From assembly GCA_964016885.1 (NCBI GenBank), contig OZ024741.1:112282001-112346000 (forward strand): 64,000 bases of DNA, in the 5' to 3' direction. The position numbers were made by a program, and so were the translations under genes. The notes beneath the pieces were generated by a model, which saw only the letters and a list, made by a program, of their open reading frames with translations, searched no databases and was not told where the DNA came from. Positions 6,487 through 56,399 of the stretch are shown here, piece after piece; the stretch's first letter is position 1; each line of letters opens with the position of its first letter. This DNA is from Eledone cirrhosa. Lineage: Eukaryota.

Positions 6487-6712
6487 TCCAGGGATAGTAA
6501 CGTGAAGTTACTGTAGGTTCACCCAGGTGAGCCCTTGATGTTTAGGTTAACGTCAGTAACAAGGTATCATTACAACAGTGGTAGTCCGACGAGCTTTTGA
6601 TTCCAGAGTCGAGCCAGATCGATACAGATCAAACCATGAGCTAGCGAAACGCGCATCACCAATCAATAAATGTAATGAAGGCTTAACAAATCGTTCTTGT
6701 ATTATTATTATA
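6487..6712 (+). mobile_element. Short non-coding element carrying a long-stem-II hammerhead (copy A)
   Basis: TA-flanked. CCGACGA at 6586, GAAACGCGCA-TC-ACC at 6646-6660. Homologous to 18172-18390, 40335-40435 and 53742-53918. Confidence 0.7.
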
Positions 6713-16149: not shown

Positions 16150-17870
16150 GGTATAAAGCTGATGGACCAGGTCATGAAAGTAACAGAAAGAGTTATAGCA
16201 TAGTTAATTAGGGACCGGGTGAAACTAGATGGGATGCAATTTGGGTTTGTGCCAGGAAGAGGCACCACTGATGCCCTCTTCCTTGTGAGGGAGTTACAGT
16301 AAAAGTACCTAGCTAAAAGTAAGCCGCTCTAGCTGACATTCGGCGATCTGGAGAAAGCCTTTGACAGAGTTCCCCATGCTATAATCTGGTGGGCTCTTAG
16401 ATAACTAGGAGTAGATGAATGGCTTGTGAAAGCTGTACAAACCATGTATAGGGGAGCAGTCAGCAAAGTTAGGATTAGCAATGAGTATAGCGAGGAATTT
16501 AGCGTACAGGTCGGTGTCCACCAGGACTCTGTTCTTAGCCCTCTCCTGTTCATCATAGTCCTGCAGGCAATAACGGAGGAGTTTAAGACTGGATCCCCAT
16601 GGGAACTCCTGTATGCAGATGACCTCGCAATTATAGCTGAATCTATGGTAGAACTAGAGAAGAAATTCCAAACTTGGAAGCAGGGACTAGAAAGAAAGGG
16701 TCTCAAAGTTAACCTGACAAAGACTAAGATTCTTGTAAGTAGACGAAAAAACAGAACCCAGATCCCCTCAGGGAAATGGCCTTGCTCAGTATGTAGGAAA
16801 GGTGTAGGTAGGAACTCCATTCTCTGCTCCAAATGCAAACAATGGGTACACAAGAGATGTAGCGGGATCTCGGGAAGCTTAATTAAGAATGTAGGATTCA
16901 CATGCAGCAGCTGTGCTGGGACAGCAAACAGCCACAGCAAACAAGTACCACTAAACTCTGGGAGGGCTCTGTAGAAACAGTAGACAGCTTATGCTACTTA
17001 GGCGACCGAATTAGCAGTGGAGGCGGGCGTTCGAAAAGTACAATAACTAGGGTAAGAACGGGACGGAAAAAGTTCAGGGAGCTACTGCTACTGCTAGCTG
17101 CAAAAGGCTTTTCCCTCAAAATGAAAGGCAGACTGTATGATGCGTGCATACGAACAGCAATGTTACATGGTAGTGAGACCTGGGCACTGATTGTGGAAGA
17201 CTTGTGTAGATTAGAAACGAAGCCTGCATGCTCCGATGGATGTGTAATAGTAATATACGCGAACGGCAAAGCATAAATGAATTGAGAGAGAGACTGAGCA
17301 TAAGAGGAATCAAATGCTGTGTGCAGGAGAGGCGGTTGCGTTGGTATGGACATGTGATGCGCATGAAGGATGAGAGCTGCATAAAAAGGTGCAGAGCACG
17401 AGAAGTCGATGGAAACCGCGGAGTGGGGAAACCCAAGAAGACCTGGTATGAGGTGATAAAAGCCGACTTTACCCAATTAACCTCTCAAAGGTGATGACAC
17501 ACGACTGTCACGCAGTAATACAGAAGACCCAACCCCCCACGGGTACAAGCCGAAGCTGAAGCATATAGACAATATGACCCCCACACCCTCCCACTGCAAA
17601 GAGGTCGTGGAGGTGCCACACAAAAAAAGCATCCAGCCCACACTGTAAAGTGGACGTGTAGGCGCCACTGAAAAAAAGCACCCAGCACTCACTGTAAATG
17701 AGGTTGGTGTTAGGAAGGGCATCCAGCTGTAGAAATCAAGCCAAAATAAGTTCCCGTATGAGCAAGACAAGGTCAGCCGACCAGACACTGCCCACAACAG
17801 GACAACCCGTCTAACCCATGCTAGCGTGGAAAAACGGACGTAAAACGGTGATGATGATGATGATGATGAT
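16150..17870 (+). mobile_element. RTE LINE family A, 5'-truncated and frameshifted
   Basis: DLEKAFDRVP, VGVHQDSVLSPLLF, LLYADDLA, Cys-rich insert, RRLRWYGHVMR, (GAT)n tail. Flanked by (TA)n on both sides. Confidence 0.92.
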
Positions 17871-18054
17871 ATATATATATCTACATATATATGTGTGTGT
17901 ATATACATATATATATATATATATGTGTGTGTGTATGCATATATATATGTGTATATGCATATTTATATATATCGCATATATGTATGTGTATATGCATATT
18001 TATATATATCGCATATATATATTTGTATATGCATATATATATATATATATATAA

Positions 18055-18172
18055 TAATTGTTTCTACGTTTGGCACAAGGCCAGCAATTACCCAGTGCAT
18101 TACTGGTACTTTATTTTATCGACCCCGTAAGGCTGAAAGACAAAGTTAACCTCGGCGGAATTTGAACTCAGG
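18055..18172 (-). mobile_element. tRNA-SINE fragment
   Basis: Same family as 7141-7292. Confidence 0.7.
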
Positions 18173-18390
18173 GGCGAATGGTTGCTCTTTCATTACGTCT
18201 ATTGGTTGGTGTCGTGCGTTTCCCTACTGATCAACTCAAGGTTCAATCTGTATCGATCTAGCCTGACTCTGGAATCAAAAGTTCGTCAGACCTCTGTAGC
18301 AATGACTATACACCTCAATACTTACGTGAACCTAAACATCGAGTGCTCAACTGGGTGAACCTACAGTAACTCTGCGTTCCCCTCCCTGGA
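18172..18390 (-). mobile_element. Long-stem-II hammerhead element (copy B)
   Basis: Minus strand GGU-CUGACGA-(~60 nt)-GAAA-CGCACG-AC-ACC at 18208-18292. Same 5' start TATCCAGGGA as copy A. Confidence 0.7.
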
Positions 18391-18669: not shown

Positions 18670-18715
18670 TAAAAATATAAATATTAATAAAATAGATGTT
18701 CTTTTGATCAATTAC

Positions 18716-18768
18716 ATTTTATTATACATATTTCGGATGTACAACAGTACGTCCTCATCAGACAAAAT
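18716..18768 (-). ncRNA. Type I minimal hammerhead ribozyme
   Basis: AUUUUGU-CUGAUGA-GGAcGUAC-uguu-GUACaUCC-GAAA-UAUGUA-UA|AUAAAAU. Full core with a 7-bp stem I. Confidence 0.85.
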
Positions 18769-18985
18769 ATAATGATACATGACATACCCTGAGATGTTAA
18801 ATGGTTAAGATTTAATCAAGGTTTAATCAAGGTTTAATTAAGATTTAATTAATTCGTAGAGTGCTTCCAATCTACTGTAAAACTCATTCTTTGACAAAAT
18901 CATTGAATATTGTTTAACACTTTAATATATATATATGTATATATATATATATATGTGTGTGTATGTATATGCATATATACATACT

Positions 18986-24325: not shown

Positions 24326-25357
24326 TCATCAACATCATCATCATCATCAACGTTTAACGTCCGTGTTCCACGCTTGTATGGGTTTGGACGGGGGTTTTCC
24401 CACTTGAGGCAAGAGTGATTATCTTGCTCGCATAGGACTATCTGGCGGGTTTTCTACAGCTGGATGCCCTTCCTAACACCAACCACATTTACAGTGTGGG
24501 GCTGGGAGGTTTTTACCGTGTTGCCTACACGGCCACATTACATCGTGAACTGTGTGGTTTTTGACGTGACACCTACACGATCTCATTTGTTTCGGCCTGG
24601 ATGTTGTGGCACCAACATAACTTTACATTGAAAGGGGCGGTGTGGATGGGGTGAGGGTGGTGGGATGGGGGTGTATTTTGTTAGAGATGCCTACTGACTG
24701 TAGTAGGTTTTACTTTGTATTTAGGTAAGGCGGGTCTTCTCTATTACTGAGTACCGCCAAATGTCTCGGTCCAGTGACATTGTCTTGGTGAGGTGTAAGT
24801 GTGTGAGGTCGGAATTTATCAGCTCGTCCCAGGTTTTTCTGGGTCTGCCTATTCCGTGGCTACCGTCTATCTTTATTGCCCTACACTTTGTCATACAGCT
24901 ATCGTCCTTCATGCGCATCACGTGACCATACCAACGTAGCCTTCTCTCGAGTAAACAACATCTGATCCCTCTTATTTCTAATTTTTTCCTTAATTCGTTT
25001 ATGCTTTGCCGTTCACGTATATTACTATTACACATCCAGCGGAGCATGCAAGCTTCGTTTCTCTCTAGTTTGCGTATATCCTCTGCACACAATGCCCAGG
25101 TCTCACTGCCATGCAACATTGCTGTTCGTATGCAGGCATCATACAACCTGCCTTTCATTTTTAGGGAGAACCCTTTAGCGGCTAATAGTGGTATAAGCTC
25201 TCTGAACTTTTTTCATCCAGTTCTGACTCTAGCTACTGTACTTTCAGAGCACCCTCCCCCACTGCTGATTTTGTCACCCAGGTAACGGAAGCTGTCCACT
25301 ATTTCTATAGAACCCTCTGCGCAGTTGAAAGAGCTAGTATTTTGTGGGCACTTGCTG

Positions 25358-25360
<3 letters not shown>
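24323..25360 (-). mobile_element. RTE LINE family B 3' fragment
   Basis: VDSFRYLGDKISSGGG, MKGRLYDACIRTAMLHGSETW...RRLRWYGHVMR, (GAT)n tail. Confidence 0.92.
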
Positions 25361-25392
<32 letters not shown>

Positions 25393-25485
25393 AATATATA
25401 TTGATCTGTTGTTCAATATGCGCATATGTTTTATGTGTCTCTTGGGTTGAAAAGGAGGTCAAGTATGTTATAGATCAGAAAATAG

Positions 25486-25534
25486 TTGCTCCGAAGAATC
25501 CAAACCTCGGTTTGGAGGAAACAATTGTAAGCAA
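25486..25534 (+). ncRNA. Minimal hammerhead ribozyme with CCGAAGA (U4C) core
   Basis: UUGCU-CCGAAGA-A-UCCAAACC-uc-GGUUUGGA-G-GAAA-CAAUUG-UA|AGCAA. All three stems form and the stem III loop is palindromic. Confidence 0.75.
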
Positions 25535-25574
25535 ATAAATGACTTAAACTGAACTTTGATTATTATAATCTCTA

Positions 25575-26338: not shown

Positions 26339-26557
26339 AATGTTTCGCCGGCATGTAGCTCGAGTCATGGTCCTTGTATGGATCTGGCTGATTCTACTTC
26401 TGCAGGTTCTTTCAGACATGGGTGTTATGTCCAGAGCAAATTTTATCTGATAAAATTTGCTCCGGACATAACACCGATGTCTGAAAGAACCCGCAGAAGT
26501 AGAATCAGCCAGATCCATACAAGGACCATGACTCGAGCTACATGCCGGCGAAACATT
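26339..26557. repeat. Near-perfect 109-bp-arm palindrome containing a long-stem-II hammerhead-like motif
   Basis: Centre at T26448 with few mismatches. Minus strand UGU-CUGAAAGA-(~61 nt)-GAAA-CAUUUG-UA|ACA at 26331-26419. Confidence 0.85.
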
Positions 26558-32442: not shown

Positions 32443-32446
32443 CTTA

Positions 32447-32509
32447 TATTCTGTCTGATGAAAATGTACTTAAACACCATTGTACCTTTGAAATATGTAT
32501 AATAAAATA
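32447..32509 (+). ncRNA. Type I minimal hammerhead ribozyme (relative of 18716)
   Basis: UAUUcUGU-CUGAUGA-AAAuGUAC..GUACcUUU-GAAA-UAUGUA-UA|AUAAAAUA. Confidence 0.8.
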
Positions 32510-38324: not shown

Positions 38325-38407
38325 GTTGGCATGTAAACAGAACTGCAGACGCTAATGTTTCTGGGTGATTACCCTTCATCAGTACAGTATACTGCTTACA
38401 TGCCAAC
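38325..38407 (-). ncRNA. Type I hammerhead ribozyme with long stem I
   Basis: GUUGGCAUGUAAGCAG-uau-ACUGUA-CUGAUGA-A-GGGU-aauc-ACCC-A-GAAA-CAUUAGCG-UC|UGCAGU-u-CUGUUUACAUGCCAAC. Confidence 0.88.
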
Positions 38408-38433
38408 TTTCAGAGGTAGTGAAAATATATGAT

Positions 38434-38478
<45 letters not shown>

Positions 38479-38481
38479 TAT

Positions 38482-39744
38482 AAAAGTAAGCCACTCTACT
38501 TGGCATTTGTCGACCTTGAGAAAGCCTTTGACAGAGTTCCACGTGCAGTAATCTGGTGGGCTCTTAGAAAACTAGGAGTAGATGAATGGCTTGTGAAAGT
38601 GGTACAAGCCATGTATAGGGGAGCAGTCAGCAAAGTTAGGATTAGCAATGAGTATAGCGATGAATTTAGCGTACAGGTTGGGGTCCACCAGGGCTCTGTT
38701 CTTAGCCCTCTCCTGTTCATCATAGTCCTGCAGGCAATAACGGAGGAGTTTAAGACCGGGTGCCCATGGGAACTCCTGTATGCTGATGACCTCGCACTCA
38801 TAGCTGAATCTATGGTAGAACTAGAGAATAAATTCCAAACCTGGAAGCAGGGACTAGAGAGAAAGGGCCTCAAAGTCAACATGACAAAGACTAAGGTCCT
38901 TGTAAGTAGACGAGAAAACAGAACCCAGATCCCCTCAGGGAAATGGCCTTGCTCAGTATGTAGGAAAGGTGTAGGTAGGAACTCCATTCTCTGCCCCAAA
39001 TGCAAACAATGGGTACACAAGAGATGTAGCGGGATCTCAGGAAGCTTAATTAAGAATGTAGGATTCACATGCAGCAGCTGTGCTGAAACAGCAAGCAAAC
39101 AGCCACCACAGGAAACAAGTACCACCAATCTCTGGGAGGGCCCTGTAGAAACAGTAGACAGCTTCTGCTACCTAGGTGACCGAATTAGCAACGGAGGTGG
39201 GTGCTCAGAAAGTACAATAACTAGGGTAAGAACGGGATGGAAGAAGTTTAGGGAACTACTACCACTGCTAGCTGCAAAAGGCTTCTCCCTCAGAATGAAA
39301 GGCAGACTGTATGATGCGTGTATCCGAACAGCGATGTTGCATGGTAGTGAGACCTGGGCGCTGAAGGTGGAAGACTTACGTAGATTAGAGAGAAACGAAG
39401 CCTGCATGCTCCGATGGATGTGTAACAGTAATATACGTGAACGACAAAGCATAAAGGAATTGAGAGAGAGACTGAGCATAAGAGGAATCAAATGCTGCGT
39501 GCAGGAGAGGCGGTTACGCTGGTATGGACATGTGATGCGTATGAAGGATGACAGCTGCATAAAAAGGTGCAGAGCACTAGAAGTTGATGGAAACCGCGGA
39601 GTGGGGAGACCCAAGATGACTTGGGATGAGGTGATAAAAGCCGACCTTACCCAACTACACCTCTCAAAGTCAATGACACACGACCGTGACTTCTGGCGTC
39701 ACGCAGTAATACAGGGTACCCGACCTCCCATGGGTACATGCTGA
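38482..39744 (+). CDS. RTE family A reverse transcriptase, 5'-truncated but open (~420 codons); element continues to about 40035
   Basis: FVDLEKAFD, GVHQGSVLSPLLF, YADD, C4HC3 insert, LHGSETW, RLRWYGHVMR with no stops. The N-terminus of the track ORF is microsatellite. Confidence 0.93.
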   Translation, partial: KSKPLYLAFVDLEKAFDRVPRAVIWWALRKLGVDEWLVKVVQAMYRGAVSKVRISNEYSDEFSVQVGVHQGSVLSPLLFIIVLQAITEEFKTGCPWELLYADDLALIAESMVELENKFQTWKQGLERKGLKVNMTKTKVLVSRRENRTQIPSGKWPCSVCRKGVGRNSILCPKCKQWVHKRCSGISGSLIKNVGFTCSSCAETASKQPPQETSTTNLWEGPVETVDSFCYLGDRISNGGGCSESTITRVRTGWKKFRELLPLLAAKGFSLRMKGRLYDACIRTAMLHGSETWALKVEDLRRLERNEACMLRWMCNSNIRERQSIKELRERLSIRGIKCCVQERRLRWYGHVMRMKDDSCIKRCRALEVDGNRGVGRPKMTWDEVIKADLTQLHLSKSMTHDRDFWRHAVIQGTRPPMGTC

Positions 39745-40334: not shown

Positions 40335-40435
40335 TCTGACACACATTTTGCAATTGATCAGCTCAAGGTTCGATCTATATCGATTGAGCCCAACTCTGGA
40401 ATCAAAAGCTCATTGGACTTCTGTTATTGTAATGA
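40335..40435 (-). mobile_element. Long-stem-II hammerhead element (copy D, CpG-decayed)
   Basis: Minus strand GU-CCAAUGA-GCUUUUGAUUCCAGAG...GAUCAAUUGC-AAAA-UGUGUG-UC. Confidence 0.6.
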
Positions 40436-40960: not shown

Positions 40961-43327
40961 CCATATTAGTTAGGTAAGTTATTTGGATATAATAATTTAC
41001 CTGCCATCTTATCTGCCAGCACGATAATGTATCTTTTACAGAAGCCACTAAAATACTGTTTTAACCCAGGCTTATTATGAATAGACATTCCACCATCCAC
41101 CCTATCTGACTTATCTTACCTTCAACCAGGTTACCAACTCTTTCTTTTCAGCCACCAAATGCATCTCTAGCAATACCACTTTTAATGCCCAACTTATAAA
41201 TAAGTTCATAGATCAATTCCACCTCTCAAACCTCATAACATGATTGCTCTTCTAACCCATGCAATCATGGAAAATATATGATAAGCAGTGTTGGTGATGT
41301 GTATTTATATATATATGTACCTCTCTATATGTACCTCTATCTATATATACCTCTATATACACCTATATACCTGTATACATACATACATACCTATATATAG
41401 ACATATATTACAATACATATTTTTAGATAACAATACCTTATATAGGTTGCTTCATGTTTATAGTCATCACGTATCATTATATTTTGTCTTCCTAATGTCT
41501 ACATTTCTATACTATAAAAGTATACATTTCACACCTCTGAGAATTAATGTTCTACTTTTTTTTCTTTTTCAACTATATTGTATATTCTGTATTCTATTTT
41601 TATATCATAATCAAGATTATATGTGAGTGTTGGCAATGAGATGGGGGCATAGGGAAATATATATTGATGATGATGATTATGTTGATGACGATAAATGTGA
41701 TGAAGATGATCATAGTTGTGCTAGAGTATTACATAACTGAGAGTTGTTCACTAAATCAATACATGTTGTATAGTAATCTCAATACATACACAGTCACACA
41801 ATATACTTGGAAAGTTGCTTTTATTGTATGAATCCTTTAATTCACAATATGTATCATGTTATACAATAATTTGTTGGTCTTCAGTTACATTGTATATTTA
41901 TTTGTGCTGTAAACTTACTCTCCAAAGGAGAAATTAATGTCAATACTTGAAAACATCGCCTTTTTTATTCTTCTTATCAATTGAGAAACCTTACATTATT
42001 TTGTTTCCCTTAAGAATTCAGAGTGTAGATAAGCTGGCTCCATTTTTAAGAGCTTAGAAAGCACACTACATTGGCTGCATTAAAGTTTCTAACTTTTGGC
42101 CTTACTGTTTTACTTGTTTCAGCCATTTAATTGCTGAGGTATCACATTGAAGGGATTTAGTGAATCATATTGAACATTGTAATTAATTTTTCAAGTCTGG
42201 TACATAATTTATTTATCTCATTTTGTCAGACCCTAAGTTAAAAGACACCAACAAACTAAATGTAAACACATATATATATATACATATGCATACAGTAAAC
42301 CTTTAAAAAGGCTTGCCGAACACAAGCCAAAACTGCTTGGCTTGTGTTCGGCATTGTGGGCAGGCTTATACCCACTCTGCATGTTCCCATGCATTGAGAA
42401 CTCCCATGACTTGTAGTCTGCCTTGTCTCTGGATCGCTATATATATATATATCTTAGCTCCTTTGGTAGAGCATTAATTCCAACCCTAATCCACCCAGTA
42501 TATCCTTGAAAATGCTTGCTGAACCTAAACTGAAACTGCTTGGCATTGCAGTTGGGTTTATACCCCCCTCTCTCTCTCTAAATAATAATAACAATGCAAA
42601 AATCTATGAACGCTGGATAAACTCAACCCCACTGATATTACTGAGGAAAGTAGAGCTAAAACCGATCAATGATGAGTCAAAACCACAAAAACAACTATGA
42701 CAAAAACTATCACTTGAAAAAGTATGAAACGAAATTGAATAAATAAAATTACAAGCAAACTAAAATGAATGCAAATAGAATGACATTGATAAACAAATGG
42801 AAATCGAAATCTCAAAAAATAGATGGAGAACAGTTGGACCACATTCATAAACAATGGAAGCAGGAATGTGAGAACGAAGAACTAATCTCATTACAAAGAT
42901 GGGAGAAGAACGAAAACTGGTTCTCACTATGAAGAACAATTTATAATAGAATACAACACAGTTGAATTCGGTAAAAGTAAACAAAGATATATAAATAATC
43001 ATCAAATTACTTGGCACATTAATATAGAAACCTTCTAAATAACCAAAAGGTCAGTCATTGCATTCTTCAAACACTATTTTCCCTAGAACACTGATTTATT
43101 AGAGTGCTCATCTGTGAAGGTTATACTGTAGCATTACAAAGATAATCTGGTTTAAGCAGTTAAAAATCACTCCAATCATACATATCCAGCATTATGGTGG
43201 TGATTAAATGCGATGGAGTTTCCATTTATGAAATAAGGTTAAGACAGATATGTTTACATAATTGTATTTATTGAATTATACATATTTCAATGAAATATGT
43301 ATGATGAAATAACACCTGTCTTAATTT

Positions 43328-50324: not shown

Positions 50325-50377
50325 ATTATTCTTATAACTGCATTTTAGACATTATTGTGTCCTCATCAGAGAATAAT
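50325..50377 (-). ncRNA. Hammerhead relic (G12A)
   Basis: AUUAUUCU-CUGAUGA-GGACA-caauaa-UGUCU-AAAA-UGCAGUUA-UA|AGAAUAAU. 8-bp stem I. Confidence 0.65.
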
Positions 50378-50975: not shown

Positions 50976-52384
50976 AGAGATATTTAACTCTTAACGTCTT
51001 GTACCATATGAAACTGCATTAGCTAGGCATTCTTGAAATATATAAAACAGAACAATGACTACACATTAAAAAATAAATTCTTTACAGCAAATTTTCACTA
51101 CTAATCATACTATAAACATTTAAATTAACAAACCCAGTTTTAGGTACTTTCTACAAAATCATTACAGTATGTGGAAGAACAACAATTTACTAGTATTTCA
51201 GAATCGTTATCCCTCATCAATAACATTTACTCACTTAGTACTGAAGTTAATAAGCTAATGATAAGGATCCTGAAATACATATATATGGCATTCTCACATG
51301 GTTACTTACACAGCAAGAATTATGTATGCTTGTTATACATAAATATATTCTATACTCTTTCATATATACCCCTATTCTGAATTACGCTGTCTTAGTGCTA
51401 CTGTTTATCAATACTAGCCTATTAAGCCCACATATGCAAATGAGCATCCCCCAAATTGTATTTTTTTGCAATATTTATATATAAACTATTAACTTATTTA
51501 CCTTAGTGCTGAGTAAATTCCACTGATGATTGATAAAGACCCTGAAATACTCACACTGTACATTCTCACATGGTTACTGAAGTAACTGCAACTTGATCAT
51601 GACTTAAAATACCCACAGCGAGACTCATGCATGTTTATTATATATAAATATATTGTACATGCTTCCATATACAATATATTTATATATAATAAACATACAT
51701 AAGTCTTGCTGTGGGTATTTTAAGTCGTGATCATATACTCTTCTAATCATCTCTGCTATTCATGTGGTAATTTTTTTTTTAGAATATTTTAAAGAATTTT
51801 CTCATGATTGATTCTTAAATTATGGATAATATAAAAAATGTTTAGCAGGTGTATCCAGTTCAACAAACGGTTCGAAGGCATTGTAGAAAGTGTTCACCAT
51901 TAATGATAATGTAAATGCTAGCTAAAGGGAAACAGAAATACTGTTAGGGAATGAGGGAGGAATAAAAGAGAATTAGAATAGAGAATGAACTGTGAAGCTA
52001 GAAGCAACTGCTGATAGTTGATTGATCACCTGTGATGTTAGTGACATGATGACAACAATCTTATTATAGATGGTCTCAAGCTGATCATGGCTGTGTTTAA
52101 TATCTCCATGCTAGCAGAATGTATGTGTCACTGGGGAAACACAAATAAATTGATGTTGAACCAAGATGAAATACATAAAGCCAACTGAGTGGATTTTGTT
52201 TTGATCCTTTCATTACAATATTTCTAATGACTTATATAAAACCATGACTTTCAACTAATAGTGAAAATAATTAAGAGTTTGGGGAGATTTAGTAATGTAA
52301 CTAATTTTGTTATTATTAAGCTGGTGGTTTGTAACAACAAATATTCTTGCATAAAATCCTTATGGAATTTACATATATATATAT

Positions 52385-53687: not shown

Positions 53688-53741
53688 GCATGTATGTGTG
53701 TATATGTGTATGCATGTATGTATATATATATATATATTGAA

Positions 53742-53918
53742 AGGATAACAAGGACGATTGGTTACTCCTTCATTACATTTATTGGTAGGTGACGCGCGTT
53801 TCACCACTGATCAGCTCAAGGTTCGATCTGTATCGATCTTACCCGACTCTATAATCGGCAGCTCGACGGACCCTTTAAAATGCTGTGAACCTGCAGTAAC
53901 TCCAAGTTACACTCCCTA
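53742..53918 (-). mobile_element. Long-stem-II hammerhead element (copy C)
   Basis: GGU-CCGUCGA-(60 nt)-GAAA-CGCGCG-UC|ACC at 53788-53872, followed by AAUAAA. Confidence 0.75.
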
Positions 53919-55195
53919 TCATCATCATCATCATCATCAACGTTTAACGTCCATGTTCCACGCTTGCATGGGTTTGGACGGGGGTTTTCCCACTTGAGGC
54001 AAGAGTGATTGTCTTGCTCGCATAGGACTGTCTGGCAGGTTTTCTACAGTTGGATGCCCTTCCTAACACCAACCACATTTACAGTCTGGACTGGGAGGTT
54101 TTTACCGTGTTACCTACACGGCCACATTACAACGTGGACTGTGTGTTTTTTTGTCGTGACACCTACACGATCTCATTTGTTTCGGCCTGGATGGTGTGGC
54201 ACCAACATAACTTTACATAGAAGGGGGCGGTGTGGATGGGGTGGGGGTGGTGGGACGGGGGTGTATTTTGTTAGAGTTGCCTACTGACTGTAGTAGGTTT
54301 TACTATGTGTTTAGGTAAGGCGGGTCTTCTCTATTACTGAGTACTGCCAAAGGCCTCGGTCCAGTGACATTGTCTTGGAGAGGTGTAAGTGTGTGAGGTC
54401 GGAGTTTATCAGCTCGTCCCAGTTTTTTCTGGGTCTGCCTATTCCGTGGCTACCGTCTATCTTTATTGCCCTGCACTTTGTTATACAGCTATCGTCTTTC
54501 ATGCGCATCACGTGTCCATACCAACGTAGCCTTCTCTCGAGTAAACAACATCTGATCCCTCTTATTTCTAATTTTTTCCTTAGTTCGTTTATGCTTTGCC
54601 GTTCACGTATATTACTATTACACATCCAGCGGAGCATGCAAGCTTCATTCCTCTCTAGTCTGCGTATATCCTCTGCACACAATGCCCAGGTCTCACTGCC
54701 ATGCAACATTGCTGTTCGTATGCAGGCATCATACAACCTGCCTTTCATTTTTAGGGAGAACCCTTTAGTGGCTAATAGTGGTATAAGCTCTCTGAACTTT
54801 TTCCATCCAGTTTTGACTCTAGCTACTGTACTATTAACCTGGCTAAGACCAAAGTTCTAGTTTGTAGGAAAGAAAATAAGGCGGCGTCCCTTCCGGGAAG
54901 TGGCCATGCTCAGTGTGTAGGAAAGGCGTAGGTAGAAACTCTATTTTGTGTCCGAAATGCAAAGTATGGGTGCATAAAAGATGTAGTGGGATCACAGGTA
55001 AGCTAACTAAGAACATAGATTTCACATGTGGCCGGTGCTCTGGTGCAATAAGTAGCAGCAAGTGCCCACAAAATACTAGCTCTTTCAACTGCGCAGAGGG
55101 CTCTATAGAAATAGTGGACAGCTTCCGTTACCTGGGTGACAAAATCAGCAGTGGGGGAGGGTGCTCTGAAAGTACAGTAGCTAGAGTCAGAACTG
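53919..55195 (-). mobile_element. RTE family B with twin-priming 5' inversion (junction about 54830)
   Basis: Minus strand carries the RT C-terminus and (GAT)n tail. Plus strand 54831-55195 carries the preceding KTKV..Cys-rich..ARVRT segment. Confidence 0.9.
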
Positions 55196-55269
55196 TATAT
55201 ATATATATATATATTGTTATATCGCAAAACTAATTCATCGCCGTTATATATATATATATATATATATAC

Positions 55270-56177: not shown

Positions 56178-56399
56178 ACATGAAACAATCACAGGGGATA
56201 ACTGTAAAGTGTGTAATCATACATAGCTAGGTAGGTAACTAATTAAAGTTTAACTAGAGCTTCAAATATTACCTTTTAAAAAATGATTAATCATTTTTTA
56301 AAAGGTAATATTTGAAGCTCTAGTTAAACTTTAATTAGTTACCTACCTAGCTATGTATGATTACACACTTTACAATTATCCCCTGTGATTGTTTCATGT
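56178..56399. repeat. Spacer-less palindrome with 111-bp arms
   Basis: Centre GATT|AATC at 56288/56289. One mismatch seen. Confidence 0.95.

Follow-up and report, generated by a model that had tools for sequence, protein, structure and literature searches.

A high-copy family of short animal repeats carries a minimal hammerhead ribozyme motif in which the normally invariant U at core position 4 is replaced by C, and this C4 is the fixed state of the family. The motif lies at positions 25486 to 25534 on the forward strand of the window, the whole 64-kb stretch of DNA analysed here, with its core CCGAAGA at 25491 to 25497, C4 at 25492 and a predicted cut after 25529. By its anatomy it would work like the minimal hammerheads of Penelope-like elements (PLEs), and we hold with about even confidence that it represents an attenuated, dimer-cleaving ribozyme of a family that is likely the end of a Penelope-like-type retroelement. 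The U4C substitution itself is already known, from a viroid, reportedly peach latent mosaic viroid, and from a relaxed CYGANGA core descriptor, which limits the surprise. The motif is therefore a new family-level variant in which both the kind of ribozyme and the substitution are already known, and the fixation of C4 in animal repeat families is what appears new, a novelty of moderate degree.

The three stems are arranged around the core in the type I order. Stem I has 5 bp (25486 to 25490 with 25530 to 25534), stem II has 7 bp and a 4-nt loop, the GAAA segment occupies 25518 to 25521 and the cleavage triplet is GUA. Stem III comprises 2 bp inside a perfect 8-nt palindrome, ACAATTGT (25521 to 25528, forward strand; A15.1 to U16.1), through which two copies are predicted to build a common stem III as a dimer; a palindromic 15.2-16.2 pair and loop III that allow dimerisation are characteristic of PLE minimal hammerheads and are present here. 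When compared with the canonical core (CUGANGA, GAAA and UH), U4 is the sole invariant base to depart, and the motif fits the relaxed CYGANGA core (PMC13481778). The closing pair G10.1-C11.1 of stem II is absent: A at 25498 stands opposite G at 25517, an arrangement open to two descriptions, as a mismatch of A with G or as a U-A pair flanked by a single unpaired base on either side. A25498 also corresponds to the extra base after A9 of the PLE type, which a second, long-stem-II family in the window lacks. The first-pass annotation, which had described the motif as a well-formed hammerhead, thus gave the core correctly and overstated the rest, since the conserved closing pair is missing family-wide and Rfam hammerhead models gave no match at E<=10 on 25402 to 25572, nor on 53740 to 53920 around one long-stem-II copy.

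A descriptor composed after the motif was seen, allowing any base at position 4 with a stem I of at least 5 and a stem II of at least 6, matched the 25486 site alone in the window and nothing in 150 dinucleotide-shuffled windows, so the motif is not attributed to chance; a second copy was sought in the window and none was found. Folded together, two copies reach their minimum energy, -31.0 kcal/mol as compared with 2 x -11.6, as a double hammerhead in which they share a stem III of 8 bp. Monomer folds do not yield a hammerhead, the exact probability of the hammerhead in a single copy being 0.007, and z-scores were -2.0 for 25484 to 25538 and -0.2 to -0.7 for the long-stem-II copies. Cleavage is predicted to be slow and to take place in the dimer, not in the monomer.

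The window is repeat-rich animal DNA, with (TA)n arrays, LINE fragments bearing reverse-transcriptase domains and a CpG observed/expected ratio of 0.48. RTE-like LINE copies occur at 38356 to 39744, 16314 to 17948, 24328 to 25360 and 53918 to 55198, in which a PHD-finger match follows the reverse transcriptase; they end in (GAT)n tails and form two subfamilies about 76% alike. A LINE ORF of the window has relatives in marine invertebrates (47-75% identity), and the DNA may bear a likeness to that of octopus. Long inverted repeats at 56226 to 56351, 26413 to 26483 and 51309 to 51713 are hairpins with no relation to the hammerheads; they give weak, sub-threshold matches to miRNA models and are possibly MITE-like. 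Among the 150 of 209 matches listed from an Rfam scan of the whole window no hammerhead was found, these being microsatellite-driven miRNA and similar models. The hammerhead-like motifs of the window outside the 25486 and long-stem-II families have canonical cores. These include a third minimal family (18711 to 18773, reverse strand; 32444 to 32508, forward strand) with the core CUGAUGA, a stem I of 12 bp and a near-palindromic stem III, of which a 5' fragment also occurs at 41467 to 41489, and further type I motifs at 38342 to 38388 and 50325 to 50377 (both reverse strand), the latter with G12>A. C4 is found in two of the five hammerhead-like families of the window, and in both of these an AATAAA lies within about 10 bases 3' of stem I (25535 to 25540, and after each motif of the long-stem-II family).

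As the 25486 motif is the only copy in the window, position 4 was tallied through sequencing runs. Four of the six listed public runs were aligned to 25402-25570 at 80% likeness, namely three contig sets from one sample and one RAD read set from another. The 438, 469 and 453 contigs and 2380 reads recovered are mostly 90-100% alike (the summed depth of the contigs is not a copy number), and the repeat is a high-copy, fairly young family. The aligned contigs and reads identify the sequence from 25402 to 25572 (forward strand) as a remnant of about 170 bp flanked by (TA)n arrays, and their loose ends show that family members reach further upstream than 25402; no second occurrence of the motif at these upstream loose ends was found in the window. 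T at 25492 accounts for 0 of 138122, 70.7 of 190111 (a single contig) and 0 of 141587 depth units in the three contig runs, that is 0, 0.04 and 0%, for family members at least 80% alike and in contigs, which drop rare variants. In the RAD set 61 of 1378 reads have T; they derive from two start sites, and the change resembles other single-locus changes. The family consensus is C4, not a U4 consensus with sporadic C4, and the explanation of C4 as a sporadic change in one decayed copy is rejected.

Variation elsewhere in the family is considerable. The changes include A>C at 25498 (9-10%), two at 25517 (G>A in 11-13%, G>T in 7-10%), A>G at 25524 (16-21%), T>C at 25525 (8-11%) and C>T at 25543 (55-68%). 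The changes at 25524 and 25525 would together preserve the palindrome if carried by the same copies, the alleles being unphased. The missing G10.1-C11.1 pair is the majority state of the family; with the less common alleles, which are C at 25498 and A or T at 25517, the facing bases could become C-G, A-U or A-A, and this constitutes a second natural core-adjacent variant. Besides 25492, no invariant-core position is variant at the 4% level among the 40 of 41 variant rows listed. However, stem II and its loop equal the core in invariance in the contig runs, and the invariance of the core is therefore no proof of selection.

The long-stem-II family consists of elements of about 210 bp, with four window copies 68-83% alike, on which its position-4 count is based. 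The first-pass annotation reported C4 in three of these, and the cores are as it gave them: CCGACGA (6586 to 6592) in the motif at 6583 to 6660 (forward strand; element about 6487 to 6700), CCGTCGA (53863 to 53869) with a 60-nt stem II at 53787 to 53873 (reverse strand), a decayed CCAATGA (40410 to 40416) at 40335 to 40419 (reverse strand), and the U4 core CTGACGA (18283 to 18289) at 18208 to 18292 (reverse strand; element about 18169 to 18389). The family fits a type I fold with a stem I of 3 bp proximal and 8 bp distal, a 60-nt stem II closed by G-C, a CG-rich palindrome and a GUC triplet. In this fold 86% of 115 cells are paired, and sliding the structure lowers the figure to 25-41%, the structure having been drawn from the same copies; no covariation was found among the four, with 0 pairs changed on both sides. 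The closing pair 10.1-11.1 is retained in three of the four (G-C in two, G-U in one). Each copy also departs elsewhere from the canonical core or triplet and is accordingly regarded as decayed: A6>U in the 53873 copy, G5>A and G12>A in the 40411 copy, C11.1>G and U16.1>A in the 18292 copy, and 16.2 G>A with a 7-nt gap in the 6584 copy. The earlier suggestion that the single U4 copy reflects CpG decay is in keeping with nine other CpG columns of the family, in which 12 of 36 cells have decayed, as against T>C in 7 of 114. The likelihood ratio for a C4 master is about 440 under a star model of independent copies, for these four decayed copies, and C4 is likely the master state of this family as well.

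Exact-pattern scans of IMG/VR were performed with the core and two common stem II types, and completeness of stems I and III was judged by a loose in-house rule. C4 occurs in 28 and 48 stretches, of which 21 and 26, respectively, are complete. The 47 complete phage C4 hammerheads represent 38 flank clusters, 31 of them being type I and 16 type III hammerheads, and 45 carry a GUC triplet (Fisher p=0.04 against the U4 forms). U4 forms are complete in 129 of 136 and 128 of 137 of the matches listed, with estimated totals of about 770 and 1100; complete C4 hammerheads amount to about 3% of U4 in phage contigs. Complete A4/G4 forms number 0/2 and 0/21, any change of G5 or of A6 gives one complete case in three each, and the transitions G5A and A6G give no complete case in the phage contigs. 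Of the changes tested at positions 4-6, C4 is the one that chiefly recurs. Rfam hammerhead models match 11 of 20 tested phage C4 loci at E<0.01, one of them above the gathering score. A partial sample of prokaryote genomes from GTDB, with 126 loci limited to U, C and G, contains complete hammerheads in 77/96 for U, 2/21 for C and 1/13 for G, which agrees with the phage C4 frequency and places C4 barely above G4. Many of the hammerhead matches with a GUCC/GGAC stem II in GTDB fall in Patescibacteria/Saccharibacteria genomes, some with two per contig. A single match from a metagenome pattern scan was rejected as chance, as it lies within bacterial-looking coding sequence. The proposal that C4 is a tolerated natural variant and not random decay is partly supported. 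C4 is not random decay, being fixed in the 25486 family, likely the master state of the long-stem-II family and recurrent in phage hammerheads far above other substitutions, and it is likely to be tolerated at the price of slower cleavage; the first-pass annotation was mostly right in its observation and largely right in its inference.

A ribozyme with C4 may be expected to be slow. The natural U4C variant of the viroid has much lower activity in vitro and retains infectivity (Ambros and Flores 1998, via PMC3088659), and a deep mutational scan reports low activity in all single mutants of the CUGA region (PMC9901934). U4 is described as contacting the A6-N7 phosphate (PMC3088659), and in the neomycin riboswitch's U-turn a protonated C can stand in for U (PMC4105743). 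In the proposed mechanism, two copies on one transcript would pair through the 8-nt palindrome to form stem III, as has been proposed for PLE hammerheads, stem I would close across the copies and cleavage would follow GUA. C4 would likely keep part of the backbone hydrogen bond of U4, possibly as a protonated C, the precedent being from another RNA. Reduced but non-zero activity of this kind would suffice for elements whose ribozymes are already slow.

Several observations favour the attenuated ribozyme. C4 is fixed while 25498, 25517, 25524 and 25525 vary at 8-21%; the predicted anatomy is that of PLE minimal hammerheads and the two-copy model folds as a double hammerhead; and complete hammerheads are found with C4 and not with A4 or G4 in phages; and infectivity is retained by the viroid variant. 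Counting against it are the missing G10.1-C11.1 pair and the GUA triplet stacked on C4, the low activity of CUGA mutants (PMC9901934), the predicted pairing of C4 into stem II, which would hinder monomer folding, the want of covariation in the long-stem-II family, the failure to find a PLE ORF among the 154 scanned, and the similarity of C4 to G4 in the prokaryote sample. The main rival is an inactive relic, in which function was lost in the master copy (through C4 and the loss of the 10.1-11.1 pair) and amplification went on regardless. The two non-canonical features occurring together, the CUGA mutants and a core no more invariant than stem II agree with such a relic, as do the Naiad PLEs, which reach very high copy numbers without canonical hammerheads according to PMC8557442, whose authors suggest that hammerheads may merely parasitise PLEs. 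However, subfamilies of the 25486 repeat differ at many flanking sites while, among the variant positions listed, no invariant core base has changed at the 4% level, the variants at 25524 and 25525 are compatible with the palindrome, and it is C4, not A4 or G4, that recurs in 38 clusters of phage hammerheads and in the long-stem-II family. The relic is accordingly given less weight than the attenuated ribozyme, though it is a real possibility; the low activity of CUGA mutants, the missing pair with GUA and the proliferation of PLEs without canonical hammerheads are what keep the two from standing further apart. A more far-reaching form of the active reading, in which C4 is a second active core serving as a rate dial through a protonated cytidine, fixed independently in two animal retroelement families, arisen in dozens of phage lineages and missed by CUGANGA descriptors and Rfam in whole high-copy families, among them one with a 60-nt stem II and one with no 10.1-11.1 pair, seems to us rather unlikely.

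Still less probable is a selected brake, in which C4 is favoured because the core strand can then base-pair with part of stem II, holding the ribozyme off until dimerisation or release by a chaperone. In the monomer, the predicted probability that position 4 pairs within the stem II region is 0.87 with C, against 0.10 with U. Positions 25489 to 25495 can pair with 25511 to 25517 over 7 bp (-7.0 with C4 against -4.1 with U4; shuffle p=0.028), and a matching duplex of core and stem II occurs in the long-stem-II copies 18292 (p=0.005) and 40411 (p=0.011), with complementary changes at both CpGs. The alternative helix was, however, noticed post hoc, the other two long-stem-II copies give no such signal (p=0.92 and 0.49), and at -9.8 the hammerhead fold remains lower in energy than the off helix at -7.0. 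Since C4 placed in the canonical hammerheads of the window also raises the pairing (0.94 and 0.56), the effect is a generic one.

Descent of both C4 families from one old C4 element, with a single origin in the genome, is doubtful to a like degree: both are flanked by (TA)n arrays, their distal stems I are alike and each has the AATAAA just downstream, but their stems, N7 and triplet all differ and, as the first-pass annotation held, they appear unrelated, with no cross matches by BLAST or nhmmer and local alignment scores that 205 and 131 of 300 shuffles also attained.

To our knowledge, no in vivo role has been established for PLE hammerheads, and an abundant repeat that is fixed for a core change lowering the rate offers a natural experiment on that role. 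If the 25486 family cleaves, a slow ribozyme suffices or is even favoured, and hammerheads are undercounted by standard searches, by about 3% in phages on the IMG/VR tally and by whole families in animals. If a protonated cytidine is involved, cleavage with C4 would be pH-sensitive. If the ribozyme is dead, it is dispensable for amplification, and a C4 that is 'tolerated' could mean just this.

The literature search found no earlier description of C4 as the fixed state of a repeat family in animals, although Lunse 2017 and Seehafer 2011 could contain such cases. The motifs of the two families were not matched in a plain-text search of the Craig 2021 supplement (Naiad, Chlamys and Hydra elements), where line breaks can defeat a match. 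The viroid variant is the same natural substitution, but occurs in an RNA replicon and not in the consensus of a genomic repeat (PMC3088659). The 2026 deep-sea RNA virome study (PMC13481778) used the CYGANGA descriptor, with C/T degeneracy in its logos, and so allowed C at position 4 as found here; its matches are loose pattern matches, apparently with no chance control, the cores described as tested are CUGAUGA, and its descriptor demands G10.1-C11.1, which the 25486 family lacks. Non-LTR retrozymes (PMC7761336; bioRxiv 10.64898/2026.07.22.740005) are likewise short non-coding animal repeats with type I hammerheads and are thought to be mobilised by PLEs. They are typically tandem with canonical cores, whereas the C4 hammerheads of the window are short, dispersed single remnants between (TA)n arrays, and none of the 154 ORFs scanned, from about 300 candidates in the window, gave a PLE or GIY-YIG domain. 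Fixation of a core change throughout a repeat family is also seen in the U3-A8 families of Schistosoma PLEs, with about 1,300 matches, but U3-A8 is a compensated base pair and C4 has no pairing partner (PMC4209133). PLE minimal hammerheads, as described in the same work, have U4 in all 56 representative animal families of its Fig. S3, although the descriptor largely required U4; they are expected in the pLTR of an element with a PLE reverse transcriptase and a GIY-YIG endonuclease, and they mostly close stem II with G-C or G-U, the G10.1-C11.1 pair being called highly conserved by Cervera and de la Pena (PMC4209133), unlike the 25486 family, and differ from the second window family with its 60-nt stem II. 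In other respects the 25486 motif resembles them closely, in its type I arrangement, stem I of 4-5 bp, long stem II, extra base after A9 and palindromic helix III, in its dispersed single copies and in its predicted cleavage as a dimer (PMC4209133).
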